The notes: generated by a model not told the origin, from the letters alone. 64,000 nucleotides of DNA from an uncultured Candidatus Rokubacteria bacterium (GCA_963771355.1 CAVYTA010000007.1:282423-346422); one strand, 5' to 3'; shown: positions 6,014-30,890, counted from the first letter of the stretch. Numbers and translations: made by a program.

Positions 6014-6514
6014 ATGATGTTCACCTCAATGATGAAGGCGTTTCGCAGGACGGGGCGCGAGGAGGGATTCACCCTCGTCGAGCTTCTGATCGTGATCCTC
6101 ATCGTCGGCATTCTCGCGGCGGTGGCAATTCCTCTGTACCTGGGGTACACGAAGGATGCCAAGCTGGCTGAAGGCAAGGCGCTCCTGGGCTCGGTGATGA
6201 CGGCACTGCAGGGATGCGTGCAGGCCAAGGGCTCCGGGCAGAGCTGCTCGGTCAGCGAGATCGTCAATCGCGTCGGTGTCAGCACGGCCGGCGTGACGGG
6301 CGATGGGCGGTGGACGGTGACGACCTCGGGGAGCCTCGCGGTGTCCTCGACCTCGCCGCCGACCTTCAGCGGTACCATTCAGGCGGTCGGCACGGGTGCC
6401 GACACGGCCGCGCTCTCGCTGGGCATGTTCCCGACCACGACCGGTGTCTTCCTCCGTTGCAACTCCTCCAGCAGCACGCCGCCGTCGGGTCCCACCGCCG
6501 GCGAGCCCTGCTAG
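6014..6514 (+). CDS. pilA: Type IVa major pilin (prepilin with class III signal)
   Basis: ATG at 6014 with GGGAGGA 4-5 nt upstream; alternative ATGs at 6029 and 6032. Leader reads ...RTGREEG|FTLVELLIVILIVGILAAVAIP, i.e. G-1, F+1, E+5. Two Cys pairs (QGC...SC and C...C at the C-terminus). The C-terminal tail is Ser/Thr/Pro-rich: SSTSPPTFSG...TTTGVFLRCNSSSSTPPSGPTAGEPC. Confidence 0.85.
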   Translation: MMFTSMMKAFRRTGREEGFTLVELLIVILIVGILAAVAIPLYLGYTKDAKLAEGKALLGSVMTALQGCVQAKGSGQSCSVSEIVNRVGVSTAGVTGDGRWTVTTSGSLAVSSTSPPTFSGTIQAVGTGADTAALSLGMFPTTTGVFLRCNSSSSTPPSGPTAGEPC

Positions 6515-6592: not shown

Positions 6593-8560
6593 ATGACCCC
6601 GCCCGGCACCGCCCCGATCGTCCGTGGCTTTCCGCGCTGGATCGACGGCACCCTCGTCATCCTCGCGGCGGTCGCCGCGTTTCTCCCCGGCATATTCGGC
6701 GGCTTCCTCGGCTGGGACGACGATCAGAACTTTCTCGAGAATCCCGGCTATCGGGGCCTGGGTCCCCGCCAGCTCGGGTGGATGCTCACCACCTTCCACA
6801 TGGGGCACTGGAAGCCGCTCACCTGGCTCACCCATGGCGTGGACTGGGCGCTGTGGGGGATGCACCCGCTCGGCTACAAGGCGGGGAGCATCGCGCTGCA
6901 CGTCGCCGCCACCCTGGCGTTTCTCGCGCTGGCGCGTCGGCTCCTGCGCCTGGCGCAGCCGGGGTACCCGCTCGACGCGGTGCGAGCGGGAGCTCTCGGC
7001 GCCGCGCTGCTCTTTGCCGTGCATCCGTTGCGCGTGGAGCCGGTGGCCTGGCTGAGCGCGCGCGGCGATCTCGTGGCCGGGCTCGTCGCATTCCTCAGCG
7101 TGCTGGCATATCTCCGGGGGACGCGGGCCGGGTACTGGATGTCCGTCGGCCTGTTCGCGGTGGCGCTCACGGGGAAATCCATGCCCGTGACCCTGCCGCT
7201 CGTGCTCCTCGTCCTCGATGTCTACCCGCTCCGCCGGCTCGGCCCCTTCGCGGAAGGCGGCCCGTCCATCGGCGGCTGGTGGAATCCGCCGGCCCGGCGG
7301 ATCTATCTCGAGAAGGCGCCTTTCCTCGTCCTGTCCGCCGCGGCCACCATCATGGCTGTCCTCGCGCGGATCGAGTTCGGAAGCCTCGCCGAGGTCAACG
7401 AGGTGGGGTGGGGCGCGCGCCTGGCTGCCAGCGTGTACGCGCTTGCCTTCCCCCTCTGGAAGATGGTGATCCCCGTAGGTCTCTCGCCTCTCTACGACCT
7501 CCGGGCGGCGCTGGGCCGCGGCCCCTGGCCCTTCGTCATGGCCGGCACGGCCGTCGCCGGGCTCACCGCGCTGGCGGTGGCGCGCGCCCGCCGCTGGCCG
7601 GCCTTCGCGGCGGTGTGGGCGTCCTACGTGATCATGCTGCTGCCGGTGTCGGGCCTCGTCCAGAACGGCCCTCAGATCGCAGCGGACCGCTATACCTATC
7701 TGGCCGGCGGAGGCTGGGCGCTGCTCGCCGGCGGTGGGCTCGCCTGGTGCGCCGCGCACGTGACGGCCCGCTCGCCGCGCGCCGCGCTCGCGCGGGGCGT
7801 GCTGGGTCTCATGGTGGCCGCCACGCTCGTCCTGGTGAGCGCAAGCGCGTGGCAGGCCCTCATCTGGCACAACTCGGTCACGCTCTGGTCGCGCGTGGTG
7901 GAGCTGGAGCCGGACGGCGCCATCGCGCGGACCGGGCTCGGCACCGCGCTGCTGGCCGACGGCCGGCCGCTCGAGGCCGCGGCCCACTACCGCCGCGCGC
8001 TGGAGATCTTCCCGCGGCTGCCCGAGGCGAATCTCGGGCTGGCTCTGATCCTGGCCGGCGAGGGCCGGGGCGCGGAGGCGCTGCTCCACGGGCGCCAGGC
8101 GGTGGCGCGTCAGCCGCAGCGGGCGGGATTCCGGATGGTGTTCGCCGAGATCCTCTGGGGCGCGGACCGGCGCGAGGAGTCGCTCGCCGAGCTGCGCGAA
8201 GGCGCGCGGCTGGCCCCCGCTGTCCCGCTCTTTCCCTACCTGCTCGCGGTCAAGCTCGCCCGGATGGGACGGGGACCGGAGGCCATCGCCGCGCTCGAGG
8301 AGGGCCGCCGGCTCGAGCGCGCCGCGTACCTCTCGGGTCTCGAGGGCGATCGATTCACGGCGCTGGTGTACGAGTCGATCGATCCCCCCACCGCCGTGGC
8401 CGCCTGGCAGCGCTACGTGATCGCGCTGAGCCGGGTGCCGCGGCCGACGGCGCTGCAGCTCAGCCAGCTTGCGTATGGTATCGCCGCGCTCGACGCGCTC
8501 ACGAAGAGCTCGGCGCCGCCCCGGGCGCTCCCCCCGGCGCCCTCAGGGACCTCTCGGTAG
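6593..8560 (+). CDS. Membrane GT-C-like (TMTC/DUF1736-like) glycosyltransferase candidate with TPR repeats, paralog 2 (tfpW-like position immediately downstream of pilA)
   Basis: 655 aa. GFLGWDDDQNFLENPGYRGLG first-loop motif. Shared blocks HMGHWKPLTWL, HPLRVEPVAWL and DRYTYLAGG. Roughly 11 TM segments, then a C-terminal TPR region (HYRRALEIFP, EANLGLALIL). Confidence 0.65.
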   Translation: MTPPGTAPIVRGFPRWIDGTLVILAAVAAFLPGIFGGFLGWDDDQNFLENPGYRGLGPRQLGWMLTTFHMGHWKPLTWLTHGVDWALWGMHPLGYKAGSIALHVAATLAFLALARRLLRLAQPGYPLDAVRAGALGAALLFAVHPLRVEPVAWLSARGDLVAGLVAFLSVLAYLRGTRAGYWMSVGLFAVALTGKSMPVTLPLVLLVLDVYPLRRLGPFAEGGPSIGGWWNPPARRIYLEKAPFLVLSAAATIMAVLARIEFGSLAEVNEVGWGARLAASVYALAFPLWKMVIPVGLSPLYDLRAALGRGPWPFVMAGTAVAGLTALAVARARRWPAFAAVWASYVIMLLPVSGLVQNGPQIAADRYTYLAGGGWALLAGGGLAWCAAHVTARSPRAALARGVLGLMVAATLVLVSASAWQALIWHNSVTLWSRVVELEPDGAIARTGLGTALLADGRPLEAAAHYRRALEIFPRLPEANLGLALILAGEGRGAEALLHGRQAVARQPQRAGFRMVFAEILWGADRREESLAELREGARLAPAVPLFPYLLAVKLARMGRGPEAIAALEEGRRLERAAYLSGLEGDRFTALVYESIDPPTAVAAWQRYVIALSRVPRPTALQLSQLAYGIAALDALTKSSAPPRALPPAPSGTSR

Positions 8561-16073: not shown

Positions 16074-18181
16074 TGACCCGCCCGACCCCGCCGTCCCCGT
16101 GTGCGCTCGCCGGCCAGCGGGGCAGCGTCATCCTGATCAGCATCGTGCTCGTCTTCGTGATGACCCTGCTCGGCCTTGCGCTCTTCGAGCTGGGCGCGAT
16201 CGAGAACCGCATGTCGCTCTCCAGCGCCGCCGACGCGCGCGCGTTCGAGGTGGCGCAGGGGGGGATCGAGCGGGCCCTCCGCGAGCTCCAGGATGGCTTC
16301 GACGCTGACACCCAGGGGAGCGAGAGCTGGGCCGACAACGACGGCGTGCGGGCCCCCATCTGCTCCGCGTCCTGCGTCACCGGGGCGTATCGGCCGATGA
16401 CCCTCGCCAATACCAGCTTCCCCGGCGGAGGCAGCTACGCCGTTGAGATCATGCTGGTGACGGTGGCGCAGGCCAACGCGACCTCGCCGTATCCGATCGG
16501 CCTCAGCTGCTTCAGCAACGCGGCCAATGTCTGCACGAACCTCGTCTTCGTCCGCAGCACGGGAACGGTGACGGACAGCCCGGCGGGGGGCGCCACCTCG
16601 CCCGCGCCGGCCGGCTATACCGCGGTGAAGACGCTCCAGGTGCTGGCCCGGGCCTATGCGCCGTCCGTGTTCGCCAATGGCGTCGTGGCCGGCACGCCCT
16701 CCGCGCTCCAGCCGGTGAACGGTAATGTCCTCATCTCGGGCTCGGCGCAGATTCTCGGCGCCCCCGTGGGGGCCCTGTCCGCCATCAACTGGAACGGCGT
16801 GAACGCCGGCTTGCGAAATGATCTGAGCAATCTGATCGCCGACGCTCAGATCCTTCGCCGGCTGCCCGCCCAGCAAGCCGTTTGCGCGCCTACCGCCGTG
16901 CCGTGCGCCGTGCCGAACGTGTACTCGCTCGGGGCCGGGGCCCAGGTGGCCCGCCCGACCGGCATCGCCGCGATCACCCTCGCGGGCGGGGCCGCCATCG
17001 GCGGGGCCGCCGGCGCCGCCTACGCTACCGGCGGCAGCACGCCCGGCTCGCTCGCGGGCAAGGGGCCGCTCGATTCCATCTTCGTCGCCGATGGCTGCCA
17101 GAACAGCACGTGCGCCGATAGCTACGCGGTCACTGCCCCCTCGCAGCTTCCGATCGTCGACATGGGGGCCATCGGCCGCGCGTATCCCGAGAACCCGGTG
17201 GCGCCGTTCCCCACGCTGACGAGCCCGGTGCGCATCGCCGGCGTCACTTACGGGACCGGGCTCCAGAACTACTTCTCGACACGCGCGGCCAACATGACGG
17301 CCATGCTGTCCGCCAACGACATGCCCGGAACCGTTGGCGGTCTTACCTCGAGTACCAGCAACTGCTCCAATTCGGCGTGCAGTCCCATCACCGGCTTCAC
17401 GAACAAAGATGGCGCGGCACGGCTGGGGCGGATCTGCTGGACTCGCAATTCGGGGACCCTCACCTTCGGCGTGTCCACCGCCGGCGATCCCTGCAACTCG
17501 CCCGCTACCGCGGCCGACCCGCTGCTGGTCTACAACACCAGCGCGAACGGCTGGCGAATCGATCGAGGAGCCTTCTCCCGGTCCGACACCACCTGTCCAG
17601 GGACGCAGATCTGCTACACCGGCGTTGCGATCATCTACAATGCCAACTCGGTGTCGATCGAGGAGACGGTGACGAGCCTCTGCGGCGTCGCCAATTCGAA
17701 CTGCACCGCCGGGAACGAGAAGTTTCCGACCAACGATCTCATGGCGCTCCTCACGCCCGGCAATGTCAGCGTGGCCGCGACGACGACCAATGTCGTCGCG
17801 CGCGTGATGGCCATGCTCTACGCGGGGACGGACTTCGTCTCGCGCTCGGTGGTGCCGGCGACCCCCACGCGTATCGTGGGCGGCGTGGCAGCCAGTCGCT
17901 TCTGTTTCGGTGGCGGGGGGGCCTGCCCCGGCGGTACCTCGAACGCCCCCGAGATCTACCAGGCGCCACTGAACGGCTCGTCGTTGAACGCGACCCCGCC
18001 GGTGGCCCATGACGCACGTGGGCTGCCCAATGAGCTCCTCGCCCTAGCGCCGTCGCTCAATGGTCAGGCGCCGAAGCACTGGCGGGTGGAAAGCGTGCCC
18101 CGCCTGTGGCTCGAGTGCCGGCCCATCGCGCCCTCGGCGACCCTGCCCACCACGCCCACCGGCGCCTGCGGCTACAACTAG
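16073..18181 (+). CDS. PilX-N-domain protein with a large Cys-rich C-terminal region (PilX/PilY1-like tip-adhesin candidate)
   Basis: ATG 16073 overlaps the previous stop. N-terminus QRGSVILISIVLVFVMTLLGLALFELGAIENRMSLSSAADARAFEVAQGGIERAL matches the PilX_N pattern. 702 aa with more than 20 Cys in paired clusters. Confidence 0.6.
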   Translation: MTRPTPPSPCALAGQRGSVILISIVLVFVMTLLGLALFELGAIENRMSLSSAADARAFEVAQGGIERALRELQDGFDADTQGSESWADNDGVRAPICSASCVTGAYRPMTLANTSFPGGGSYAVEIMLVTVAQANATSPYPIGLSCFSNAANVCTNLVFVRSTGTVTDSPAGGATSPAPAGYTAVKTLQVLARAYAPSVFANGVVAGTPSALQPVNGNVLISGSAQILGAPVGALSAINWNGVNAGLRNDLSNLIADAQILRRLPAQQAVCAPTAVPCAVPNVYSLGAGAQVARPTGIAAITLAGGAAIGGAAGAAYATGGSTPGSLAGKGPLDSIFVADGCQNSTCADSYAVTAPSQLPIVDMGAIGRAYPENPVAPFPTLTSPVRIAGVTYGTGLQNYFSTRAANMTAMLSANDMPGTVGGLTSSTSNCSNSACSPITGFTNKDGAARLGRICWTRNSGTLTFGVSTAGDPCNSPATAADPLLVYNTSANGWRIDRGAFSRSDTTCPGTQICYTGVAIIYNANSVSIEETVTSLCGVANSNCTAGNEKFPTNDLMALLTPGNVSVAATTTNVVARVMAMLYAGTDFVSRSVVPATPTRIVGGVAASRFCFGGGGACPGGTSNAPEIYQAPLNGSSLNATPPVAHDARGLPNELLALAPSLNGQAPKHWRVESVPRLWLECRPIAPSATLPTTPTGACGYN

Positions 18182-18298: not shown

Positions 18299-19330
18299 AT
18301 GACCCCCAATTTCCTTCGCCGGCACCGGGTGGTGGGGCTGGACGTCGGCCACGGGTCCGTCAAGGCGCTGGCGCTGGAGCGTCGAGGCTCCCAAGAGATC
18401 GTGGTGGGGCGTGGGCTGACCCGGCTGGAGGGCAATCCCGACTCGCGACAGGTCGGGCAGGCCATCCACGCGGCACTTGCCGCCGCGGGGGCGGACGGCC
18501 AGCCGGTGATCGCGGCCGTGGGTGGTCCCGAGGTGGTCATCCGCCAGGTGTCGCTGCCGCCGGTGCCGCTCGCCCGCATCCTCCCCGCGCTGGAGATCCA
18601 GCACCGCGAGCTCGGCCTGCTCCCGCCCGCCGAGTCCGTGATGGACGCCCAGGTGCTCCGCCGCGCCAAGGATGGCGTCACGTCCGAGATCCTCGCCATC
18701 TGCGCGCCGCGCGTCCTGGTCGACGAGCGTACGAAGCTCCTCCAGCAGGCGGGCGTGAGGCTCCAGACGCTCGACGTGGAGCCGCTCGCGCTGCTGAACG
18801 CGGCGATCTACATCACCCAGCTCGAGCCGGGCGAGCTCCTGGTCCTGCTCAATGTCGGCCGACGGTCGTCCTCGCTCTGTCTCTTCAGCGAGCAGGGGCC
18901 GGTGGTCTCGCGCTACCTCGACATCGGCGCCGAGGCCTTCTTCGAGCAGCTGCGCGGTCCCGGCGGAGGAGCGGTCTACTCCCCCGAGGCGATGGCGCGG
19001 GCGCTGGCGCCCAGCGAGCTGGAGGGAGCCCAGTTCGCCTGCCGCGATCTCGTCGATCGCATCGCCGAGGACATCCGCCTCTCGCTGACGTTCTACCGGA
19101 CCGAGTACGACCGCGAGAGCCTGCCCCGCTACGCCATCGGCGGGTGGACGGAGCTGCCCCCCCTGGGCCGCTGGCTCGCGCAGCGAATCGGGCTCAACGC
19201 GCCGCTCGAGGTGATGGACCCGTTCAGGGCGGTGGAGGTGAAGATCACGCCGGCGGCGCCGGCGCGGGAGACCGGTGACACCGGCCCCCAGTACCTCCAG
19301 GCCTTCGGGCTCGCATTGAGGGGCCTGTGA
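18299..19330 (+). CDS. pilM: Type IV pilus assembly protein PilM (actin-like ATPase fold)
   Basis: 343 aa. VVGLDVGHGSVKALAL N-terminal actin-fold motif. Position is immediately upstream of the pilN/O/P/Q-like genes. Confidence 0.8.
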   Translation: MTPNFLRRHRVVGLDVGHGSVKALALERRGSQEIVVGRGLTRLEGNPDSRQVGQAIHAALAAAGADGQPVIAAVGGPEVVIRQVSLPPVPLARILPALEIQHRELGLLPPAESVMDAQVLRRAKDGVTSEILAICAPRVLVDERTKLLQQAGVRLQTLDVEPLALLNAAIYITQLEPGELLVLLNVGRRSSSLCLFSEQGPVVSRYLDIGAEAFFEQLRGPGGGAVYSPEAMARALAPSELEGAQFACRDLVDRIAEDIRLSLTFYRTEYDRESLPRYAIGGWTELPPLGRWLAQRIGLNAPLEVMDPFRAVEVKITPAAPARETGDTGPQYLQAFGLALRGL

Positions 19331-19962
19331 CTCGCCGCTTCAGCATCGACCTCATTCATCCCGGCCAGCTCTCCCTGACCTGGCAGGAATGGTTCGTCGG
19401 CAATCAGGGCGCGCGGCGCCTGGCGGCGGTCGCCCTCGCCGGCATCCTCGTGCTGGTGCTCATCATGGTCGGCGGCATCCTGCCGACCTACTGGCGCCTG
19501 TCGTCGGATCTCAACGCCATCCCGCGCCTCCAGAAGGACCTGGCGGCGTCGGAGGGCGACCTCAATGTCCTGCGGACCAACCTGCAGGCTCTCACGCTGG
19601 AGGCGCGGCGCCAGGTGCGCTGGGCCGGGCTCCTGGGCGCCCTCAGCCAGCACATTCCGCCCACCATACGCCTGCAGACGGTGGAGGCGTCGCGGCCCGC
19701 GCCGGCGGCGGGCGCCGCTCAGCCGCCCCCGGACGCGAAGGCGGAGGGCGTGCTGCGCATCGAGTCGGTCACGCCGGTGCGCTCGGGCAGCCAGCCGCTC
19801 CTGGAGGTGGCGCAGTTCATGGCCGGGCTCATGCGCGATCCCGCCGTGAATAAGCGGTTCCAGCTCAAGAGCTGGGACATCAAGCCGCCCGGCGGCGGGA
19901 GCGCGGAAGACGAGACCCAGTACCTCAACATCACCATCCTGCTCTCGGAGCGCGCCCAGTGA
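19327..19962 (+). CDS. pilN: PilN-like bitopic inner-membrane protein
   Basis: GTG overlaps the pilM stop (GTGA). Single TM LAAVALAGILVLVLIMVGGIL followed by a coiled-coil region. 211 aa. Confidence 0.6.
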   Translation: MTRRFSIDLIHPGQLSLTWQEWFVGNQGARRLAAVALAGILVLVLIMVGGILPTYWRLSSDLNAIPRLQKDLAASEGDLNVLRTNLQALTLEARRQVRWAGLLGALSQHIPPTIRLQTVEASRPAPAAGAAQPPPDAKAEGVLRIESVTPVRSGSQPLLEVAQFMAGLMRDPAVNKRFQLKSWDIKPPGGGSAEDETQYLNITILLSERAQ

Positions 19963-20630
19963 GAGGCCGCCCGCTCGCCCTCGCCTGGGTCGCGCTGGCG
20001 GTCGTCCTCGTGGTCCTCATCGGGGTGGCGCTCACGCAGTGGCGCTCGCTGGCCAGCCGCGGCCAGCGCGCATCGACCGAGCGGGTCCTCCTCGCCAATG
20101 AGATCCGGGCGAAGGAAGACCAGATCGTCACCTTGATGCGCGCCAACGTGGGATTGCTCCAGGAGATGCAGTGGACGTCGGCGGGCGGCGACCCGGCCGC
20201 CTTTCTCACCCGGCTGGCCGACCTCGCGCGCGAGAAGCGCATGAAGGTGATCGGCATCGGTCCCCTCGAGCGGTCCGCCACCGCGCAGTTCAACAAGTCG
20301 TGGCACACCATCCAGGTCGTGGGCCCCTACCGCGAGCTGCGCGACCTCGCCGGGCGCGTGGAGACGGAGAAGGGCATCCTCGAGGACGTCACGGTGACGG
20401 CGATCAAGGATGGAGGCCGCCTGGGCGCGTCGCGGGCGGACGAGATCGAGGCTCGCTTCAAGATGACCGCGCTCGAGCTGACGCCGGACGCGCGCAAGGT
20501 GTTCGAGCGCGCGATGGCGGCGAGTGGCGGGGCGGCCGCGGGCGCGACCGCCCCGTCGCTGGCGCTGCCCCTGCCGGCGGCGCCGGCGGAGGTCGGGAGC
20601 GATGCGCGCGATCCCTTCGCCATGACTACG
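19959..20630 (+). CDS. pilO: PilO-like protein; the reading frame continues without a stop (see finding)
   Basis: GTG overlaps the pilN stop. TM LALAWVALAVVLVVLIGVAL. PilO-like core ...WHTIQVVGPYRELRDLAGRVE.... The frame then runs into a Pro/Ala linker containing an RDPF motif (about 20607-20618). No in-frame stop occurs before pilQ, so the 3-prime end is undefined. Confidence 0.55.
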
Positions 20631-20730
20631 GCGATGCGCCGTCCGGCGCCGCCGGCAGGGGGCCGCCCGGCCGGCCGGCCCCTCCGCGGCCGGCCCCTCT
20701 CCGGCGGGGCCGGCCAGCGAGCCGCGCCCG

Positions 20731-20943
20731 GTGGGGTTCGAGCTGAAGGGGATCGTGGCCTTTCCCGGCGGCTATCTCGCCATCGTGAACAATCAGATCG
20801 TCAAGACCGGCGACACGGTCCTGGGCCACCGCGTCGAGCGGATCGCCGAGGACATGGTCGTCTTTCGCGAACCGGGCGGCGGCACCCGACAGGTGACCCT
20901 TCCCGGCCTGACCGAGGGGCCCCCCGGCGGGCCGAGGAGGTGA
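20731..20943 (+). CDS. pilP: PilP C-terminal beta-domain (in +1 frame relative to pilO; no own signal peptide)
   Basis: 70 aa from GTG: GFELKGIVAFPGGYLAIVNNQIVKTGDTVLGHRVERIAEDMVVFREPGG matches the PilP beta-sandwich pattern. An upstream stop in this frame lies at about 20623. Confidence 0.5.
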   Translation: MGFELKGIVAFPGGYLAIVNNQIVKTGDTVLGHRVERIAEDMVVFREPGGGTRQVTLPGLTEGPPGGPRR

Positions 20944-20951
20944 GGGACGCC

Positions 20952-22631
20952 ATGCAGGTCCGCATCCGTCGACTGGTGGGATTGCTCGTTCTCGCCCTGC
21001 TGGCGCTGCCCGCCGCCGCCCTCGCCCAGGGGCCGTGCGCCGATCGGCTGCCGACCGAGCGCATCACGCTCAACCTGCGCGATGCCAACGTCCAGACCAC
21101 GCTGCGCCTCCTCGCCCAGCAGTACCGCGTCAACATGGTCGTCACCGACGAGGTGAAGGGCACCATCACGCTCGACTTCTACCAGGTGCCCGCGCGTGAC
21201 ATCTTCCAGGTGGTGATCGACGCCGCCAATCTCCAGTGCGTGGAGGTCGGCGGCGTGCTGCGCGTGTCGAGCTTCTCCCGCCTCCGCGCGGAGGACGAGG
21301 AGCGGCGTAACGCGGCCGCGGAGCGCGGGCGGCGAGAGGCGGAGGCGGCCAAGAAGCAGGTGGAGGCCGACCGCGACCGGGACGACTTCGAGAAGGTGAA
21401 GGCGCGCGGCGCGGTCAAGGAGAAAACTATCCGCCTCTCCTACGCGAATGCGGAGGAGGTGGCCAAGACCATCCTCGGCATCCTCGGCCTGCCGCCGGAA
21501 GGTGCGCTGCCGCCCGCGGCGCCCATTCCCGGCGCGTACCTGCCGCCGCCCCCCATCAATATCCCGTCCACGCCGCCGCCCCCGCCCACCTCGCCCTTCG
21601 CGTCCACCGCCCTGGTCTCGCTCCCGGCCGAGGCCCTGGCCAAGGGGCTCACCGTGCGGGCCTACAAGCCCACCAATTCGGTGTTCATCCGCTACTACGA
21701 GCACGACCTCGAGCGGATCGAGAAGCTGATCAAGGAGCAGCTCGACATCCCGCTGCCCCAGGTGCAGATCGCCGCCACCATGGTCATCACCACCCAGAAC
21801 GCGCTGGAGCAGCTGGGCGTGCAATGGGGCGGCGCGGCCATCGGGAAGACGGCCGACGGCCGGGGACCCGCGGTGGTGGGCTCCGGCTTCGCCACCCCGC
21901 GCACCACCGGGACCGCGGGAACCGGCGTGGTGAACGGCCCCTTCAGCCCCAACACCAACTTCACCGGCTCCGATCTCCTGCCGGTGGCGCCCTCCACCGG
22001 GCTGCCCCTCGGCCAGAACCTCGTCAACCTCCCCACCTCGTTCCTGCCCACCCTGGCCAACCCCGCGATGGGAGTGCTCTTCGGCCTGGTGGGCGCGAAC
22101 TACAACGTGAGCCTCGCCATCCAGGCCCTCGAGCTGCAGGGGAAGGCCCGGAAGATCTCGGAGCCCAAGATCGTCACGGTGGAGAACGCCACCGCCGAGA
22201 TCTCCCGCGGATTCGAGGTGCCGTTCACGAGCTCCCCCACCGCGGACGTCTCCAACGTGCAGTTCAAGGACGCCCTGCTGCGATTGCAGGTGACGCCCAA
22301 CGTGATCTACGCCGACGGCGTGACCAAGATCCGCATGAAGATCCTCGTGGAGAACAACGAGCCGGACTTCACGCGGTCCATCAGCGGCAACCCGCCCATC
22401 TTCAAGCGGCGGACCGAGACGGAGGTGGTGGTGCAGGAGGGCGAGAAGCTGGTGATCGGCGGCGTCATGCTCGACAACTCGTCCAAGACCATCCGCAGCG
22501 TGCCGGTGCTGAGCAGGATCCCCATTTTCGGCTGGCTGTTCAAGTCCCGCGAGCTCAACTCCGACGGCGAGGAGCTGGTGGTCGTGCTGACGCCTTCGGT
22601 GGTCTCCTCCGGCCAGACGGCGGGGAGGTAG
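20952..22631 (+). CDS. pilQ: Type IV pilus secretin PilQ
   Basis: ATG 20952 sits 6 nt after GGAGGTGA. Signal peptide LVGLLVLALLALPAAALAQG. Secretin signature ...VPVLSRIPIFGWLFKSRELNSDGEELVVVLTP. 559 aa. Confidence 0.85.
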   Translation: MQVRIRRLVGLLVLALLALPAAALAQGPCADRLPTERITLNLRDANVQTTLRLLAQQYRVNMVVTDEVKGTITLDFYQVPARDIFQVVIDAANLQCVEVGGVLRVSSFSRLRAEDEERRNAAAERGRREAEAAKKQVEADRDRDDFEKVKARGAVKEKTIRLSYANAEEVAKTILGILGLPPEGALPPAAPIPGAYLPPPPINIPSTPPPPPTSPFASTALVSLPAEALAKGLTVRAYKPTNSVFIRYYEHDLERIEKLIKEQLDIPLPQVQIAATMVITTQNALEQLGVQWGGAAIGKTADGRGPAVVGSGFATPRTTGTAGTGVVNGPFSPNTNFTGSDLLPVAPSTGLPLGQNLVNLPTSFLPTLANPAMGVLFGLVGANYNVSLAIQALELQGKARKISEPKIVTVENATAEISRGFEVPFTSSPTADVSNVQFKDALLRLQVTPNVIYADGVTKIRMKILVENNEPDFTRSISGNPPIFKRRTETEVVVQEGEKLVIGGVMLDNSSKTIRSVPVLSRIPIFGWLFKSRELNSDGEELVVVLTPSVVSSGQTAGR

Positions 22632-22635
22632 CGCG

Positions 22636-24369
22636 ATGTACGAAGCCTTCTTCAGCCTCGACGACTCGCCCTTCGTCCTCACGCCCGATCCTCGGTTCCT
22701 GCTCCGCTCGAAGAGCCATCACGAGATCCTCTCCACCCTCCTCTACGGGATCACCAGCCAGAAGGGCCTGATCGCCCTCATCGGCGACGTGGGGACCGGG
22801 AAGACCACGCTGTGCCGGGCCCTGCTGCGCGAGCTGCCCGGCGAGGTGCAGAGCGCGCTGGTCCTCAACCCGCACCTCTCGGAGGCCGAGCTGGTGGGGA
22901 CCATCCTCGACGACCTCGGGATCGAGCGGCGCGGATCCACCAAGGGTGAGCTCATGACCACCCTGAACCAGCACCTCCTCGCCGCGGGGGCGGACGGCAA
23001 GACGGTGGTGGTCGTCCTCGACGAGGCCCAGCAGATGACCGACGAGGCCCTCGAGCAGATCCGCATCCTCTCCACGCTGGAGACGGCCACCCGCAAGCTG
23101 CTCCAGATCGTGCTCGCCGGGCAACCGGAGCTGGAGGAAAAGCTCCAGCGTCGCGAGCTGCGGCAGCTCGACCAGCGGATCGGCATCCGCTGCTACCTCG
23201 AGCCCCTGAGCCGGAAGGATACGTATCGCTACATCGAGCACCGGCTGCGCGTCGCCGGACTCCCCGGCTCGGTGCCCTTCACCCGCGCGGCGATGGCGCG
23301 CATCTTCCACTACAGCGGGGGCGTGCCCCGCGTCATCAACCTCGTGTGCGACCGGGCCCTCATGGCCGCCTTCGGCGCGCGCGCGCGCGAGATCACGCCG
23401 GCCATGGTGCGTACGGCGGCGCGGAACCTGGAGGGGCGGAGCGGGGGGCGGCGACGACGGGCCCGCGTTCCCCAGCGGCCCATCCTTCGCCGGCTCGCGA
23501 CGGCGGCGGGGCTCACCGGGCTCGTGGTCCTGGGCGGTGCGGCGGCCGGCTCGCAGCTCTCGGGCTGGACCCTGCCGTCGCTGCGGCTGGGCGCCGCCGA
23601 CTCCACGGCGTCGGCGCCGCCGTCCCCGTCCGCTCCCGTCGCGCTCGCCGCGCTGGTGCCGGTGACGACCGCACCCGCAGCTCCCCTCCTGCCCGCGTCC
23701 CCGGTACCGGTCTCGCCGCCGGAGGCGACGTCACCGGCGGAGCCGGCGCGGAGCCTCCTCGCGCGGCTGCTGCGCCTCTGGGGCGTGAGCGACGAGCTCG
23801 GCGCGCCCGTCGTCGCCGCGTGGCCGGTGGACGCGGGCGGAGGGCCGGACATCGCGGCGGTGGCCGGGCGCTATCACCTCACCGCCACCGTGCTCCGCGA
23901 CGTCTCCGTGAGCGACCTGCGCGCGGTGGGCTTGCCCGCGATCGTCGAGCTCGGCGAGCGCGGCGCCGTGCGCCCGTATCTCGTACGCCGGCTCGAGCGG
24001 GACGCCGCCACCCTCATCGCCCCGACGGGTGAGGAGTCGCGAGTGCCCCTCGAGCGACTGGAGGCGGCGTGGACCCGCTCCGCCTGGGTGCTCTGGCGGA
24101 ACGTCGATCTGCTGCCCGTCGATCCCGCCGAGGCGATGTCGCCCACGGTGGTGGCCACGGTGGCGCTGCGCCTTGCCAAGCTCGGGCATCTCACGGGGGC
24201 GCTGTCCACCGTCCCCGATGGGCGCTTCCAGGCGGCGGTGCGCAGCTTCCAGCGCGCGGCCGGCCTCCAGGAGGATGGCGTGGTGGGGCCGCGCACGACC
24301 CTGGCCCTCGCCCGCGCCACCACGGCGCCGTTCGGGCCCAGTCTCATCGATCGCCGGCCATCCGGATGA
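22636..24369 (+). CDS. ExeA/GspA/MshM-like AAA ATPase with C-terminal peptidoglycan-binding domain
   Basis: Walker A GDVGTGKTT, Walker B VVVVLDEAQ. The C-terminus LAKLGHLTGALSTVPDGRFQAAVRSFQRAAGLQEDGVVGPRTTLAL fits PG_binding_1. A long Pro/Ala-rich linker separates the two domains. Confidence 0.75.
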   Translation: MYEAFFSLDDSPFVLTPDPRFLLRSKSHHEILSTLLYGITSQKGLIALIGDVGTGKTTLCRALLRELPGEVQSALVLNPHLSEAELVGTILDDLGIERRGSTKGELMTTLNQHLLAAGADGKTVVVVLDEAQQMTDEALEQIRILSTLETATRKLLQIVLAGQPELEEKLQRRELRQLDQRIGIRCYLEPLSRKDTYRYIEHRLRVAGLPGSVPFTRAAMARIFHYSGGVPRVINLVCDRALMAAFGARAREITPAMVRTAARNLEGRSGGRRRRARVPQRPILRRLATAAGLTGLVVLGGAAAGSQLSGWTLPSLRLGAADSTASAPPSPSAPVALAALVPVTTAPAAPLLPASPVPVSPPEATSPAEPARSLLARLLRLWGVSDELGAPVVAAWPVDAGGGPDIAAVAGRYHLTATVLRDVSVSDLRAVGLPAIVELGERGAVRPYLVRRLERDAATLIAPTGEESRVPLERLEAAWTRSAWVLWRNVDLLPVDPAEAMSPTVVATVALRLAKLGHLTGALSTVPDGRFQAAVRSFQRAAGLQEDGVVGPRTTLALARATTAPFGPSLIDRRPSG

Positions 24370-24379
24370 GGCGCCGCGC

Positions 24380-25027
24380 GTGAGCCGGCTCTTCGACAGG
24401 CTCGCCGGGCTCGACCGGGGCCGCGCGCGCCCGGCGGGAATGGGTAACCTCTCGATTCTAGAGCCGTCCCGGGGACGCAGAGGGTCATGGCGTCTGATCG
24501 GCTCTTTGGTTATCCTACTGTGTATGGTCGCCGTCCTGGCTGCGGTGTCGGCTCGCCTTCTGAACCCGGCGGCCGTACCGGCCAGCCCCGTCCCCCCCGC
24601 CCCCTCCGTGCCGGTCTCCGAAACCGAGAGCCCCGTGGAACCGCTGCGCGCCTCCGTCTCCCCGCTGCTCGCCCAGGGCCTCGAGGCAGCGCAGCGAGGC
24701 GAGCTGGCCGATGCCGAGGGCTATTTCCGCCGGGCGGTGGCGCAGGACGCGGGAGACGCGGAGGCGTGGAACAGCCTCGGGGTGGTGCTCGTTCGCCAGG
24801 GGGAGCAAGCGCAGGGGGTGGAGGCGCTGCGGAAGGCCCTGCGGATGCAGCCGTCGCACATCGAGGCGCATCGGAATCTCGGCGTGGCGCTCGATCGACA
24901 GGGCCGGGCGGGAGAGGCCGCGGAGCACTACCGCTTCTTCCTCTCGCTCACCACCGATGCCCATCCCGGCCGCGGCGACGTGCGCCGCCGGCTCCTCGAG
25001 CTGGGCTCGGTCCGCACCGGCGTATGA
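24380..25027 (+). CDS. TPR-repeat protein with N-terminal TM (MshN-like position)
   Basis: GTG 24380 (alternative ATG 24440). TM LIGSLVILLCMVAVLAAV. TPRs: AEGYFRRAVAQDAGDAEAWNSLGVVLVRQGE..., IEAHRNLGVALDRQGRAGEAAEHY. Confidence 0.55.
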   Translation: MSRLFDRLAGLDRGRARPAGMGNLSILEPSRGRRGSWRLIGSLVILLCMVAVLAAVSARLLNPAAVPASPVPPAPSVPVSETESPVEPLRASVSPLLAQGLEAAQRGELADAEGYFRRAVAQDAGDAEAWNSLGVVLVRQGEQAQGVEALRKALRMQPSHIEAHRNLGVALDRQGRAGEAAEHYRFFLSLTTDAHPGRGDVRRRLLELGSVRTGV

Positions 25028-26754
25028 GCCTGGCCCCCGAACGCCGGGGCTGGATCACGCTGGGCCAGATGCTGGTCCAGGACGGAATCCTGACCGACCA
25101 GCAGGTCTCCGCCGCGCTCGAGCGGCAGCGGAAGAGCAAGGAGCGGCTCGGACAGGTCCTCATCGAGATGCGCCTCATCGACGAGGAGGTCCTCCTCAAG
25201 TATCTCGGCGCCCAGTTCCGCAAGGAGCCGATCACCCGGCAGGAGCTCGCCGCCCTCGACCTGGACGTGGTGAAGCTCATTCCCGAGGAAGTGGCGCGCC
25301 AGCACCGCGTGATCGCCGCCGAGCGCAACGGGCGCCGCCTCATCGTCGCCACCGCCGACCCGCTCAACGTGGTGGCCATCGACGATCTCCGTCGCGCCAC
25401 CGGCCTGGAGATCGACTTCCGTATCGGGCCCGGCAGCGCCATCCAGGAGGCCATCGAGCGCACCTACCGCCGGATGATCTCCACCGAGGGCATCGACGAG
25501 GCGCTCCGCCAGGACCTGGGCCTCTCGGTGGGGCTCGCGGCCGCCGCCGAGGAGGCGGTGGACATCAAGCAGCTCCGCACCCAGGCCGACGACCCGCCGG
25601 TGGTCAAGGTCGTGAACTACGTGCTGGGCCGGGCCGCCAGCGACACCGCCTCCGACATCCACGTGGAGCCCCACGAGGATCGCACGCGCGTCCGCTATCG
25701 CGTCGACGGGCTACTCTTCGATCTCCTGGAGGTCCCGCGCGCGCTGCACCTGGCGGTGGTGTCGCGGCTCAAGATCATCTCCCGGCTCGACATCGCCGAG
25801 CGGCGGCTACCCCAGGACGGCAGCTTCGCCTCCAAGATCCACGGCCGTGAGATCGACTTCCGCGTCTCCACGCTGCCCACCATCTACGGCGAGAAGGTGG
25901 TGCTCCGGCTCCTGGAGAAGGAGGCGGTGGTCCAGCACTACACGCTGGAGAACCTGGGCTTCGAGCCGGACCAGCTCGATTACTTCATGAAAGGCATCCG
26001 GCGGCCGTGGGGCATGGTGCTCCTCACCGGGCCCACCGGCAGCGGCAAGTCCACCACCCTGCACACCGCGATCAAGGCGATCAAGTCCCCCCGCAAGAAC
26101 ATCATCACCGTCGAGGACCCGGTGGAGTACCGGCAGCCGGGCATCCAGCAGGTGCAGGTCAAGACCGACATCGGCTTCGACTTCGCGCGGTCGCTCCGGT
26201 CCATCTTGCGGCAGGACCCCGACATCATCATGATCGGCGAGGTTCGCGACCAGGAGACGGCGCAGATCGCGGTGCGGGCGGCGCTCACCGGCCACCTCGT
26301 GCTCACGACCTTGCACACCAACGACGCGGTCTCCACCGTCACCCGCCTGATCAATATCGGCGTGGAGCCCTTCCTCGTCGCCACCGCGGTCAACGTGGCG
26401 GCGGCGCAGCGGCTGGTCCGGAAGATCTGTGCGGCCTGCAAGGAGGCCTACCGGCCCTCGGCCGAGGAAGCGGCCCTCTTCGGCCGTGACCCGGTCCCCG
26501 AGGTGCTCTACCGCGGGCGGGGCTGCAAGGCCTGCCGCAACATGGGGTTCTCGGGCCGCATGGCGCTCTACGAGGTGTTCTGGCTCAATGCCGCCGTCCG
26601 GCGCATGGTGCTCGACGGCGTCGACGGCGATACCCTTCGCCGCCACGCGATCGAAGGCGGCATGGTGACGCTCCGCCAGGCGGGATTCCGCCGGGCCGTC
26701 CAGGGGCACACGACGATCGAGGAGATCCTGGCCGTCGTGGCGGACCAGGAGTAG
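25024..26754 (+). CDS. pilB: Type IV pilus assembly ATPase PilB/MshE family with N-terminal MshEN (c-di-GMP-binding-type) domain
   Basis: ATG overlaps the previous stop (ATGA). Two MshEN-like 20-mers: TLGQMLVQDGILTDQQVSAAL and RLGQVLIEMRLIDEEVLLKYL. Walker A LLTGPTGSGKSTT. Tetracysteine CAACKEAY...GRGCKACR. 576 aa. Confidence 0.9.
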   Translation: MSLAPERRGWITLGQMLVQDGILTDQQVSAALERQRKSKERLGQVLIEMRLIDEEVLLKYLGAQFRKEPITRQELAALDLDVVKLIPEEVARQHRVIAAERNGRRLIVATADPLNVVAIDDLRRATGLEIDFRIGPGSAIQEAIERTYRRMISTEGIDEALRQDLGLSVGLAAAAEEAVDIKQLRTQADDPPVVKVVNYVLGRAASDTASDIHVEPHEDRTRVRYRVDGLLFDLLEVPRALHLAVVSRLKIISRLDIAERRLPQDGSFASKIHGREIDFRVSTLPTIYGEKVVLRLLEKEAVVQHYTLENLGFEPDQLDYFMKGIRRPWGMVLLTGPTGSGKSTTLHTAIKAIKSPRKNIITVEDPVEYRQPGIQQVQVKTDIGFDFARSLRSILRQDPDIIMIGEVRDQETAQIAVRAALTGHLVLTTLHTNDAVSTVTRLINIGVEPFLVATAVNVAAAQRLVRKICAACKEAYRPSAEEAALFGRDPVPEVLYRGRGCKACRNMGFSGRMALYEVFWLNAAVRRMVLDGVDGDTLRRHAIEGGMVTLRQAGFRRAVQGHTTIEEILAVVADQE

Positions 26755-26758
26755 GGCG

Positions 26759-28021
26759 ATGCCCGTGTTCGAGTACGAGGTGGCGGACAGCGCGGGCGCG
26801 CTCTCGCGCGGCCGCGAGCAGGCGGAGAACGCGGGGGACCTCATCCACCGCTTTCGCGAGCAGGGGCGCTTCGTGCTGGCCATCCGTCCCACCTCCGGAG
26901 AGGGGGCCTTCGGCCGCGCCGCCTCGCTCGCCCTCGGCGAGTCCTTCCGCACCACCCTCCGGCGCCTGTCGAGCGGGGTGGGGCTGCCCACCATCGTCCT
27001 CTTCACCGGACAGCTCGCGGCCATGCTGGGCGGCGGCCTCCACCTCGTGCGCATCCTCACCTCGCTGGCGGCGGAGACCACCAACGAGAAGTTCCGCAAG
27101 GTTCTCGCGGGCGTGCGCGACTCGATCACTTCGGGGTCGAGCTTCGCCGACGCGCTGGCCCTGCACCCGCACATCTTCGACCGCCTCTTCGTCGCGGTGG
27201 TGCGGGCGGGGGAGCTCTCCGGCTCGCTCCCGGTGGTGCTGGACACCCTCACCGTGTACCTCGAAAAAACGGCGAACCTCCGCCGTAAGGTCCGGGGCGC
27301 GATCGCGTATCCGGTGGTGATCCTCACCGTGGCCCTGGGCGTGGTCTTCATCATGGTCGTCAAGATCGTGCCCATCTTCGAGAACGTCTACGCGCGCGCC
27401 AACGCGGTGTTGCCGGCCCCCACGCGAACGCTCATCTGGGTGAGCGGCCTCGTCCGCGAGTACACGCTCCTGGTGTTCCTGGCCATCGTCCTCGGCCTCG
27501 TCGGCTTCTACTTCGCGCTGCAGACGGACGCGGGCCGCCGCCTCTTCGACCGCGGCAAGCTCTCGGTGCCGATGTTCGGGGGGCTCGTCCGCAAGGCCAT
27601 CATGGCGCGGGTGTGCCGCACGCTCGGCGTGCTGCTCAACAGCGGCATCCCGCTCATCGAGGCCATGGAGACGGTATCCAAGGTGGCGGGCAACCGCATC
27701 ATCGAGAACGCCCTCGTCACCGCCACGCAGCGGATGCGCGACGGCGGGACCATCGCCGCCACCCTGCGCGAGACCGGCCAGTTCCCGAGCATGGTCGTCC
27801 AGCTCGTGGCCACCGGCGAGGAGAGCGGCACGCTGCCGGCCATGCTCGGCAAGGCGGCGCTCTACTACGAGCAGCAGGTGGACAATGCGGTGGCCACGCT
27901 TTCCACCCTCATCGAGCCGGTGATGATCGTCGTGATGGGCGCCATCGCGGGCAGCATCATCTTCGCCCTGTACCTGCCCATCTTCACCCTCGGCCAGGCC
28001 CTCCGGGGCGGGGTGAGGTAG
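26759..28021 (+). CDS. pilC: Type IV pilus inner-membrane platform protein PilC (two T2SS-F domains)
   Basis: 420 aa. The platform-protein family pattern is duplicated (...FTGQLAAMLGGGL... and ...TLGVLLNSGIPL...). Position immediately follows pilB. Confidence 0.85.
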   Translation: MPVFEYEVADSAGALSRGREQAENAGDLIHRFREQGRFVLAIRPTSGEGAFGRAASLALGESFRTTLRRLSSGVGLPTIVLFTGQLAAMLGGGLHLVRILTSLAAETTNEKFRKVLAGVRDSITSGSSFADALALHPHIFDRLFVAVVRAGELSGSLPVVLDTLTVYLEKTANLRRKVRGAIAYPVVILTVALGVVFIMVVKIVPIFENVYARANAVLPAPTRTLIWVSGLVREYTLLVFLAIVLGLVGFYFALQTDAGRRLFDRGKLSVPMFGGLVRKAIMARVCRTLGVLLNSGIPLIEAMETVSKVAGNRIIENALVTATQRMRDGGTIAATLRETGQFPSMVVQLVATGEESGTLPAMLGKAALYYEQQVDNAVATLSTLIEPVMIVVMGAIAGSIIFALYLPIFTLGQALRGGVR

Positions 28022-28028
28022 GGAGGGC

Positions 28029-29489
28029 ATGGCGGCCTTCGATCCGTTCCGGCCGATGCGCGGCAGCTCGGCGCGGCTCTACGTCGTGATGCCGCTGCTC
28101 ATGGCGGCGGCGGCGGCCGCGTCCGGTCTCTACGTGCTCTTCCTGGCGCGCCCGTTCATCAACAGCCTCAACGCCCAGCTCGCCGAGCGCGCGGCGGCGT
28201 GGCTCTTCTTCGGCACCGCGGCGGCGGGCAGCCTGGGCGCGCTGGCCGGCCTCGTCATCGGGCTCCGGGTGGCCGGGCGCATCCGCGGCATCACCCAGCG
28301 CGCGGAGGCGCTCACCGCCCGCGTGGACGACGGACCGGTCCCGTCCCGGCCCGCCGACGAGATCGGCGCTCTGGATGCCGCCGTCGGCCGGCTCACGCTC
28401 TCCATGGACCGCTTCATCCGCGACAGCGATATCCTCGCCCGGCTTCCCGAAGGCATGCTCCTCATGGGGCCGGGCGGCGACCTCCTCTCGTTCAACACCA
28501 CCGCGGAGGTCGTTCTGGAATCCGCGCTGGAGCCGTTCCGCGGGGCTCCGCTGCTGTCCCCGCGCGGCCTCTTTCCGGTGGCGAACGGCAACGGCCAGCT
28601 CGCGCGCCTCCTCGACGACGCGCTGCTCGAGGAGCGCTCGCTGCACGTGGGCGAGGTGCACGTGTCGCCGGCCTCGGGCCGGGAGTTCGTGCTCGAGGTG
28701 ACGGTGCAGCACCGCGAGTGGCGCCGCGACTCCACCGCGCTGATTCTTCTCTTTCGCGACGCCTCCGAGAAGCGGCGCATCCGCGAGGAGATCCGCCGCG
28801 CGGACCAGCTCGCCTTCCTCGGCGGCATGGCCGCTCGGGTGGCGCACGAGATCCGGACCCCCATGGCCACCGTGCGGGGGCTGGTGGAGCTGCTCCAGTC
28901 GGACCTCCCCCAGGGGGACAGCACTCGCCGGGAGTACATCGACCGGGTGCTGCAGGCGGTGGACCGGCAGGATCGGCTCGTGGAAGACATGCTGACCCTG
29001 TCCCATCCCGAGCCCGAGAGCCTGGCGCCGGTGAACCTGCGTGAGCTGGTGGACGAGATCGTCCGCGACATGCCGAAGGACCCGCGCCTGCGCGTGCAGG
29101 GCCCGGCCGCGAGCGCGATCCCCGCCATCCCCGGCGACGCCTTCCGACTGCACGAGGTGTTCAACAACCTCATCCGGAACGCGGTGGAGGCCACGCCGCC
29201 CAGCGGCGTGGTGGACGTGCGGGTGGAGGCGCCCGGGCGCGGGCTGGTGCGGGTCGTGGTCCGGAACACCGGCGGCGGCGTCCCCGTGGAGCTCCGGGAG
29301 CGGATCTTCCAGCCCTTCTTCACCACCAAGGTCAAGGGCACCGGGCTGGGGCTGGCCATCGCCAAGCACATCGTGGACGCGCACCGCGGCACCCTCCGCG
29401 TGGAGAGCGACGGCAGCACCGAGACGCTCTTCGTGGTGGAGCTGCCGACAACGCAGCCCGCTTCCCCGTCGTCCGTAGTAAAGTCATGA
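28029..29489 (+). CDS. Sensor histidine kinase (2 TM, PAS-like, HisKA, HATPase); PilS-like by context
   Basis: H-box ARVAHEIRTPMATVRGLVELL. N-box IRNAVEAT. G-boxes GGGVPVELRERIFQPF and GTGLGLAIAKHIV. Confidence 0.8.
   Translation: MAAFDPFRPMRGSSARLYVVMPLLMAAAAAASGLYVLFLARPFINSLNAQLAERAAAWLFFGTAAAGSLGALAGLVIGLRVAGRIRGITQRAEALTARVDDGPVPSRPADEIGALDAAVGRLTLSMDRFIRDSDILARLPEGMLLMGPGGDLLSFNTTAEVVLESALEPFRGAPLLSPRGLFPVANGNGQLARLLDDALLEERSLHVGEVHVSPASGREFVLEVTVQHREWRRDSTALILLFRDASEKRRIREEIRRADQLAFLGGMAARVAHEIRTPMATVRGLVELLQSDLPQGDSTRREYIDRVLQAVDRQDRLVEDMLTLSHPEPESLAPVNLRELVDEIVRDMPKDPRLRVQGPAASAIPAIPGDAFRLHEVFNNLIRNAVEATPPSGVVDVRVEAPGRGLVRVVVRNTGGGVPVELRERIFQPFFTTKVKGTGLGLAIAKHIVDAHRGTLRVESDGSTETLFVVELPTTQPASPSSVVKS

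Positions 29490-29516: not shown

Positions 29517-30890
<1,374 letters not shown>

Follow-up and report, generated by a model that had tools for sequence, protein, structure and literature searches.

The mannose-sensitive haemagglutinin (MSHA) pilus of Vibrio cholerae is encoded by genes in the order mshI-J-K-L-M-N-E-G-F-B-A-C-D..., as seen in the locus that we recovered by scanning contigs with the N-terminus of V. cholerae MshE from a PDB alignment, and a plasmid of Legionella carries an MSH-type locus consisting of minor pilins, a PilM-like gene, PilN, two small genes, MshL, an AAA gene, a hypothetical gene and a GspE-family ATPase. Denise et al. (2019) described the MSH systems as a distinct clade derived from within the type IVa pili (T4aP), detected only in Gamma- and Epsilonproteobacteria and Chrysiogenetes, encoded in single loci without a prepilin peptidase and modelled with mshM as a mandatory marker. 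Here we describe a string of genes (positions 18299-28021, + strand) in a 64-kb stretch of DNA of ~71% G+C, referred to throughout as the window, from an uncultured Candidatus Rokubacteria bacterium, in which the order of functions is the same as in the V. cholerae and Legionella loci.

We consider it probable that this string encodes the core assembly machinery of a type IVa-like pilus, as a single operon, in an uncultured member of the Methylomirabilota (Rokubacteria), with an MSHA-like gene order and with proteins that are not of the MSH kind. Every component belongs to a described family, and the operon departs only modestly from a well-known machine; what is unusual is the presence of a GspA/ExeA-type ATPase and a tetratricopeptide repeat (TPR) protein between pilQ and pilB in an MSHA-like order, the fusion of PilO with PilP, and a variant MshEN motif in the extension ATPase.

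Gene order and kinship of the assembly proteins

Genes were called from frame plots of G+C at third codon positions (GC3) together with the gene calls on a near-identical contig (L001), giving eight tightly packed genes for the string (Table 1). The initial annotation had read it as pilM-N-O-P-Q, an ExeA-like ATPase, a TPR protein, an ATPase with MshEN motifs and PilC; all of these are present, on the + strand and in that order, with the correction that, judging from gene calls and predicted folds, pilO and pilP are one gene and not two. The order running from the minor pilins through the sigma-54 regulator to galU is found again in relatives with an ExeA-like protein of only ~59-60% identity, and the arrangement is therefore conserved rather than a chance juxtaposition. 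Several metagenome contigs encode a PilC protein identical to that of the window; the longest of them, an ENA contig of 1.15 Mb (ERZ25039531), matches the window at 99.8% identity over 21 kb. The protein homolog search yielded close Rokubacteria relatives only, and homologs at 80-96% identity bear the NCBI names Methylomirabilota or Candidatus Rokubacteria, which places the host in this phylum. For two homologs of the ATPase at 90-96% identity (P0008 and P0046), NCBI records of metagenome-assembled genomes give as source an archaeon, 'Candidatus Nitrosocosmicus sp.', and a 'Verrucomicrobiae bacterium'; their contigs are probably mis-binned.

Table 1. Pilus-related features of the window, with the assembly operon first and flanking features after it.
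Feature	Coordinates	Strand	Basis and remarks
PilM, cytoplasmic actin-like alignment protein	18299-19330	+	Pfam PilM_2 46.7 bits (cutoff 27)
PilN-like bitopic protein, 211 aa	19327-19962	+	transmembrane helix at residues 34-52; between pilM and pilO
PilO-PilP fusion gene, frameshifted by an extra G at ~20669	19959-20943	+	gene calls of relatives; fold search
PilQ-type secretin with N0, N1 and secretin domains	20952-22631	+	Pfam Secretin 134 bits, Secretin_N 39 bits
GspA/ExeA-type AAA+ ATPase, 577 aa	22636-24369	+	AAA_22 95 bits; PG_binding_1 38.7 bits, residues 507-557
Bitopic protein with transmembrane helix, proline-rich linker and TPR	24380-25027	+	TPR families; transmembrane helix at residues 39-57; 215-aa gene in L001
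PilB-type extension ATPase with N-terminal MshEN domain	25024-26754	+	T2SSE 433 bits
MshEN motif I, residues 12-35, TLGQMLVQDGILTDQQVSAALERQ	25057-25128	+	aligns to MshE 9-32; position 1 T for R
MshEN motif II, residues 41-64, RLGQVLIEMRLIDEEVLLKYLGAQ	25144-25215	+	aligns to MshE 38-61; position 10 R for G
PilC/GspF-family inner-membrane platform protein	26759-28021	+	T2SSF twice, 191.5 bits
PilT-type retraction ATPase	41-1102	+	TIGR01420 pilT_fam 455 bits (cutoff 319.1); Pfam T2SSE
Candidate major pilin, class III signal peptide (...REEG/FTLVELLIV)	5996-6514	+	N_methyl 29.7 bits; TIGR02532 27.5 bits (cutoff 16.3)
Putative sigma-54-type -24/-12 promoter match TGGCACacgacTTGCT	14100-14115	+	perfect match
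Minor pilin	14959-15435	+	prepilin N-terminus RGVSILEVLIA; weak N_methyl match
Minor pilin, start approximate	15429-16073	+	N_methyl 31.7 bits
PilX_N-type minor pilin	16073-17122	+	PilX_N 27.7 bits; a C missing at 17047 fuses the next gene in frame; two genes in L001
339-aa protein, family-less	17162-18181	+	between PilX-like minor pilin and pilM; called in L001
Sensor histidine kinase, PilS-like by position	28029-29489	+	HisKA and HATPase_c; position kept in relatives
Sigma-54-dependent response regulator, PilR-like by position	29517-30890	+	Response_reg, Sigma54_activat and HTH_8; generic NtrC-family scores

The alignment subcomplex of a T4aP can be recognised in the first three genes, with PilM found by profile, PilO and PilP by fold and PilN by topology; the name PilN is our inference from position, size and topology. 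In relatives (L001, L003, L090 and others) pilOP is a single open reading frame (ORF) of 327-343 amino acids. The frame is broken in the window by the extra G, and the PilO frame runs stop-free into that of the secretin to make an artificial ORF of 890 amino acids; once the G is removed, the product is identical to a protein (P0241) present in 18 other assemblies. An AlphaFold (AF2) model of PilO-PilP, with a mean pLDDT of 71 and values above 80 for both folded domains, begins at the N-terminus with a transmembrane helix and coiled coil, continues with a ferredoxin-like domain and a disordered linker of Pro/Ala, and ends in a small beta domain. Foldseek matched the first domain to PilO of Myxococcus xanthus and Pseudomonas aeruginosa (3jc8_O, E=3e-5; 2rjz; range E=3e-5 to 1e-3) and the last domain to PilP of the same two species (3jc8_P, 2lc4; probability 0.99-1.0). 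A sequence search of the PDB with a profile of 34 PilO-PilP homologs returned nothing, the two halves being identified by fold search only.

Full-length relatives of the fusion numbered only a few dozen in a search of 1.84 billion cluster representatives, which also gave ~2,500 weaker matches; the best 150 of these are mostly standalone proteins of 150-200 amino acids that align to the C-terminal domain, and some of them hit Pfam T2SSB or T2SSC. Two distant full-length relatives match Pfam PilO or T2SSM_b at the N-terminus, and distant relatives match T2SSB at the C-terminus with better scores than the window protein, for which the match is weak (18 bits). The PilP-like part is ~32% identical to MshK, and neither PilM nor the PilN-like protein has detectable similarity to V. 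cholerae MshI.

The remaining proteins were compared with T4aP, MSH and type II secretion system (T2SS) references. No AMIN domain was found in the secretin by Pfam, a domain that is present in the PilQ of Pseudomonas and Myxococcus. Its best matches in the PDB are to M. xanthus and P. aeruginosa PilQ (159 and 150 bits), with GspD at <=66 bits, and MshL is more distant, at ~30 bits by phmmer and 53-59 bits by blastp (Vibrio, Aeromonas and Legionella; C-terminal domain only); the MshL model TIGR02519 fails at 80.7 bits against a cutoff of 250.2. A highly charged stretch resembling a coiled coil and an insertion rich in proline (residues ~110-160 and 200-250) lie between N0 and N1 of the secretin. 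The extension ATPase is ~46% identical to Geobacter and Myxococcus PilB, and in phmmer it scored 521 bits with the former, 508 with M. xanthus PilB, 433 with Thermus PilF, 376-389 with GspE and 376 with V. cholerae MshE. A neighbour-joining tree of 28 ATPases (100 bootstraps), which is a distance tree with limited taxon sampling, separates the MshE clade, to which the sequences from the Legionella and Aeromonas MSH loci belong, from a group of PilB, GspE and Rokubacteria sequences in 100/100 bootstraps. As a statement of kinship, the label 'MshE-type' first given to this protein does not hold. PilC matches A. baumannii PilC at 249 bits, XcpS at 232 and MshG at 192 and 170. The gene order is MSHA-like, and by these comparisons the proteins appear to lie outside the MSH clade, so that the earlier description of the locus as MSHA rather than classical stands for synteny and fails for kinship.

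Several results weigh against an assignment to the T4aP. Curated equivalog cutoffs for PilB, PilQ, PilC and PilM were all missed, narrowly or clearly, and for this reason none of the four counts as a textbook ortholog: the extension ATPase reached 595 bits with its top model, TIGR02538 PilB (cutoff 675.65), and an almost equal 586 with GspE (cutoff 630.25), the secretin fell just short with TIGR02515 (274.6 bits; cutoff 284.35), PilM scored 82.9 bits with TIGR01175 (cutoff 133), and PilC remained under the cutoffs of both NF052606 (346 bits) and GspF (341 bits). Within the PilB/GspE group of the tree the window ATPase joins PilB in 28% of bootstraps. The PilN-like protein has no profile match in Pfam or NCBIfam, and the copy of pilOP in the window is frameshifted.

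The MshEN module of the extension ATPase

The two copies of the MshEN motif reported in the initial annotation were recovered, each departing from the consensus at one position: the NCBIfam model NF053729 'c-di-GMP_motif' matches residues 13-64 at 53.9 bits (cutoff 38), and Pfam MshEN matches residues 74-151 at 62.5 bits. The motifs are 24 residues long and separated by a spacer of 5, and residues 12-65 align without gaps to residues 9-62 of V. cholerae MshE. Ten of the 12 residues described as key in the MshEN study (PMC5013675) are kept (L10, G11, L29, Q32, R38, L39, G40, L54, L58 and Q61 in MshE numbering) and two are changed, L25 conservatively to V and R9 to T; besides these, the turn glycine G47 is R. 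The leucine clusters, both glycines of the xLG triplets and both glutamines are retained, and the 53-residue module is highly conserved among relatives. The N-terminus as a whole is closer to Geobacter/Myxococcus PilB and to PilF than to MshE, and because PilB of Geobacter and Myxococcus and PilF of Thermus also carry an MshEN domain, the domain is no marker of MSHA.

From these features we lean towards the view that the module binds cyclic di-GMP (c-di-GMP). The alternative, that it is an ordinary structural N1 domain without c-di-GMP binding and that regulation passes through the kinase and sigma-54 regulator, possibly with the CHASE2 cyclase, we judge less probable while giving it real weight. 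The change of R9 to T, with P or S in relatives, and the occurrence of R, K or H at the site of G47 in 111 of the 114 close homologs both count against binding, as does the fact that motif I of the window strain (T at position 1) and motif II (R at position 10) fall outside the relaxed search pattern of Wang et al., which accepts [RKPN] at the first position and [GAS] at the tenth (PMC5013675). No GGDEF, EAL or PilZ domain was found by Pfam among the called genes of the window, an Rfam search of the window gave no c-di-GMP riboswitch or other RNA family, and the divergent neighbour of the pilus genes encodes a CHASE2 adenylate/guanylate cyclase. Set against this, the curated c-di-GMP-motif profile was passed, the leucine clusters, xLG glycines, glutamines and the exact 5-residue spacer are kept, and the high conservation of the module speaks in favour of a ligand site under selection.

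Position 1, moreover, is known to tolerate K, L and P. Among the 114 homologs this position of motif I is P in 66, S in 24, T in 21 and R in 1. In MshE, affinity drops more than 10-fold when the hydrophobic residues are mutated and less than 5-fold with changes at R9, D12 and Q32 (PMC5013675), while PilF GSPII-B has K and L at this position and binds c-di-GMP at 6 nM and GSPII-C has P (PMC11731258). Given the small effect at R9 and the residues found in PilF, we think that motif I probably tolerates T, P or S as its first residue.

The GspA/ExeA-type ATPase and the adjacent TPR protein

The AAA+ protein encoded after the secretin has a cytoplasmic AAA domain with Walker A GDVGTGKT and Walker B VVVLDEAQ, a transmembrane helix at ~287-305 and a periplasmic PG_binding_1 domain. 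It is 33% identical to Aeromonas caviae ExeA over the full length, periplasmic part included, and its AAA domain is 47% identical to that of Ideonella GspA, whose gene precedes GspB. Identity to MshM proteins is 37-42%, but these are only 276-320 amino acids long and have neither the transmembrane helix nor the peptidoglycan-binding region. By architecture the protein is thus of the GspA/ExeA type and not of the short MshM type; the AAA and peptidoglycan-binding domains first ascribed to it were confirmed by profile, and the equation with MshM was not. Homologs carry the JGI label 'general secretion pathway protein A'. A search of a plasmid collection with the ExeA-like protein returned as best matches exeAB/gspAB pairs (Aeromonas caviae, Ideonella) and exopolysaccharide (EPS)/PEP-CTERM loci; a Photobacterium match from the same search proved not to be an MSH locus. 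A tree of AAA domains resolves distinct clades for MshM (100%), the ExeA/GspA pair (99%) and Rokubacteria (100%). The Rokubacteria proteins group with ExeA/GspA in 49% of bootstraps and with MshM in 25%, a split that does not discriminate between the two affinities.

The gene with a transmembrane helix and TPR repeats that had been noted next to it is indeed there, and its product has the same topology as MshN and GspB. It has no detectable similarity to V. cholerae MshN and, unlike the GspB/ExeB partner, no T2SSB match in Pfam.

Without ExeAB, which binds peptidoglycan, the ExeD secretin does not assemble (PMC6532946). An ExeA-like protein of P. aeruginosa, PA5037 (PA14_66580), is encoded beside pilMNOPQ, and its loss lowers piliation and twitching (PMC6321873). 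From these precedents, the most likely role of the ATPase/TPR pair would be to organise the AMIN-less secretin within the peptidoglycan of the cell wall, or to anchor or stabilise it there. PilQ multimerisation is, however, unaffected by loss of PA5037 (PMC6321873), which tells against such a role, and for this reason a function in secretin assembly may not transfer to the GspA-like protein of the window.

In a broader evolutionary reading, the locus would belong to a deep T4aP lineage and would keep the organisation from which proteobacterial MSH arose, in which a full-length, peptidoglycan-binding GspA-type ATPase and a TPR partner were encoded between the secretin and extension ATPase genes before the periplasmic half of MshM was lost, and in which the GspAB-type module was originally a pilus component that replaces pilotins or AMIN domains in AMIN-less secretins. 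We offer this as a speculation and think it unlikely.

Alternative readings, flanking genes and comparison with known systems

A true MSH-type (MSHA-like) system, belonging to the MSH clade as a distant, non-proteobacterial member, is an improbable reading of the locus. Although the genes follow the mshI-J-K-L-M-N-E-G and Legionella order, the ATPase, secretin and platform protein each gave higher scores with T4aP or T2SS references than with Msh proteins, the MshL model failed, and the ATPase stands outside the MshE clade. A homolog of MshM, the mandatory marker of Denise et al., does follow the secretin directly, yet it falls outside the fully supported MshM clade and has the ExeA-type architecture; and while the PilP-like part resembles MshK, the TPR protein is unlike MshN, and PilM and PilN are unlike MshI. 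The initial observation that pilD is missing from the window holds, with no Peptidase_A24 in the called genes and no match better than E=0.59 in a six-frame tblastn of the 64 kb with A. baumannii PilD; this agrees with the single loci without prepilin peptidase that Denise et al. report for MSH, but a PilT is encoded in the same window.

A decaying, pseudogenised pilus cluster is a still more doubtful reading. It is prompted by the pilOP and pilX-like genes, which are disrupted or fused by single-base indels, but both frames are intact in two independent assemblies at 99.3-99.8% identity, relative to which the window has an extra G at ~20669 in a GGCC repeat and lacks one C at 17047 in a CCCGGCC run. 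The exact corrected pilOP protein, as noted, occurs in 18 other assemblies, genes unrelated to the pilus (the CHASE2 cyclase and the polA intein) are broken as well, and GC3 stays at ~0.9 across genes. Because of the intact assemblies, the frame breaks in unrelated genes and the G/C repeat context of both mapped indels, we treat the indels as consensus errors of the assembly, which they probably are, and not as biology.

A T2SS-like, protein-exporting pseudopilus in place of a surface pilus is very improbable, for although the GspE and PilB models score almost alike on the ATPase, Comamonas GspE is its best blastp match among locally collected references (417 bits), and a GspA-type protein, so labelled by JGI in homologs, is a T2SS accessory, the locus has PilM, PilO and PilP instead of GspL, GspM and GspC, a secretin that is PilQ-like with GspD far behind, a PilT, a PilX_N minor pilin and a T4a-like pilin with a C-terminal cysteine pair, and among solved structures its ATPase scores 521 bits with PilB and 389 with GspE.

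With the locus taken as a type IVa-like assembly operon, its parts suggest the following working model. PilM, the PilN-like protein and PilO-PilP would form the inner-membrane and periplasmic alignment complex, and the PilP-type C-terminal beta domain of the fusion would dock on N0 of the PilQ-type secretin. The GspA-like ATPase and the TPR protein would set the AMIN-less secretin in the peptidoglycan, in the way that type II secretins are served by ExeAB/GspAB and, presumably, the MSHA secretin by MshM/MshN. A hexameric PilB-type ATPase would drive polymerisation of pilins on the PilC platform, with the MshEN module probably binding one c-di-GMP and so coupling pilus extension to the c-di-GMP level, and PilT would retract the pilus. 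Control of expression probably falls to the histidine kinase and the sigma-54 response regulator, together with the promoter match that heads the gene string, and the prepilin peptidase would have to be encoded elsewhere in the genome.

The promoter match is intergenic, at the head of the gene string, and is the sole sigma-54 match in the window at <=1 mismatch; the relative L090 has a 1-mismatch match at the equivalent place. A gene for a PEP-CTERM-sorted protein (14156-14851, +) begins 40 nt past it, directly before the minor pilins, and is missing there in relatives, which keep the near-consensus sigma-54 site. A link between the locus and PEP-CTERM systems, suggested by this gene, by the best NCBIfam match of the AAA protein (TIGR03015, 262.6 bits; cutoff 324.5) and by the PrsR score of the regulator (427 bits), was rejected: the scores lie below cutoffs and equal generic NtrC-family similarity, and the gene is not present at that place in relatives. 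A second promoter candidate, TGGCACTTGCTAGCAT at ~5922 upstream of the pilin gene, was rejected for wrong spacing. The 339-aa protein between the minor pilins and pilM has no Pfam or NCBIfam match; its position is kept in relatives, the L090 counterpart being 29% identical, and it could be a tip or adhesin component.

Other genes lie around these. Three proteins of 600-655 amino acids with C-terminal TPR repeats (1133-2935, +; 6593-8560, +; 8668-10635, -) follow pilT and flank the pilin gene, with weak matches to PilW, Tgl and PrsT-type TPR lipoprotein models. The CHASE2 adenylate/guanylate (class III nucleotidyl) cyclase gene (11544-13514, -), divergent from the pilus string, needs >=3 frame changes in the window and is intact, at >634 amino acids, in the same place in a relative. 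A DNA polymerase I gene (53914-57758, +) is split by an intein at ~55684-56984 that includes a homing endonuclease of the LAGLIDADG type, its motifs reading LVGYAMADGHI and FLRGYFEGDGSA; the intein junctions are ...ATGRLS/CLPAGTLV at the N-terminal side and ...GIVVHN/SALPNLQNIP at the C-terminal side; the insert of 1301 nt is not a multiple of 3, and a 1-nt indel near 56330 therefore splits the ORF in this assembly.

If the reading as a type IVa-like operon is correct, the MSHA-type gene order reaches beyond the MSH clade of the Proteobacteria, type IVa pilus operons can include a peptidoglycan-binding ATPase of the ExeA/GspA type as an integral part, a single polypeptide can do the work of PilO and PilP, and a pilus, and hence surface attachment or motility, can be assigned to the Rokubacteria, an abundant uncultured soil lineage. 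The module with T, P or S at position 1 and R, K or H at the turn glycine is a natural MshEN variant whose c-di-GMP affinity would refine the consensus used for receptor prediction. The current understanding of type IV filaments is not overturned, and the main value of the locus lies in their comparative evolution and in the MshEN consensus.

Among described systems, the T4aP of Geobacter and M. xanthus share with the window a PilB-like ATPase with an MshEN-type N-terminus, a secretin for which M. xanthus PilQ is the best match, the PilO and PilP folds of 3jc8, and PilT, a T4a-like pilin and a kinase with a sigma-54 regulator, all within the window; the window locus differs in its fused PilO-PilP, its AMIN-less secretin, the GspA/ExeA-type ATPase and TPR protein between pilQ and pilB, the missed equivalog cutoffs and a pilD that is not in the cluster. 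V. cholerae MSHA and the MSH locus on the Legionella adelaidensis plasmid share the order of functions, an MshM homologous to the AAA protein, an MshK resembling the PilP-like domain, the lack of a prepilin peptidase and the 5-residue MshEN spacer of MshE; they differ in that MshE, MshL and MshG are each more distant from the window proteins than are the T4aP/T2SS counterparts, in their short, cytoplasmic MshM, in an MshN and MshI without detectable similarity, and in the phylum of the host. The tandem MshEN/GSPII motifs of V. cholerae MshE and Thermus thermophilus PilF GSPII-B and GSPII-C have the same 24-residue length, leucine clusters, xLG triplets and terminal glutamines, whereas motif I of the window starts with T (P or S in relatives) where they have R, K or L, and motif II has R, K or H for the turn glycine. 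P. aeruginosa PA5037, likened here by description and not by sequence, is likewise an ExeA-family ATPase linked genetically to T4aP alignment and secretin genes, but its gene lies upstream of pilM and not between pilQ and pilB. ExeAB/GspAB of the Aeromonas and Vibrio T2SS, finally, have the same AAA_22 domain, single transmembrane helix and periplasmic PG_binding_1 domain, with the gene of a bitopic periplasmic partner next to it; in the window that partner is a TPR protein and not a GspB/T2SSB-domain protein, a T2SSB-like signal being confined to the PilO-PilP C-terminus, and the two genes stand within a pilus operon, whereas the usual layout is a separate two-gene exeAB operon.

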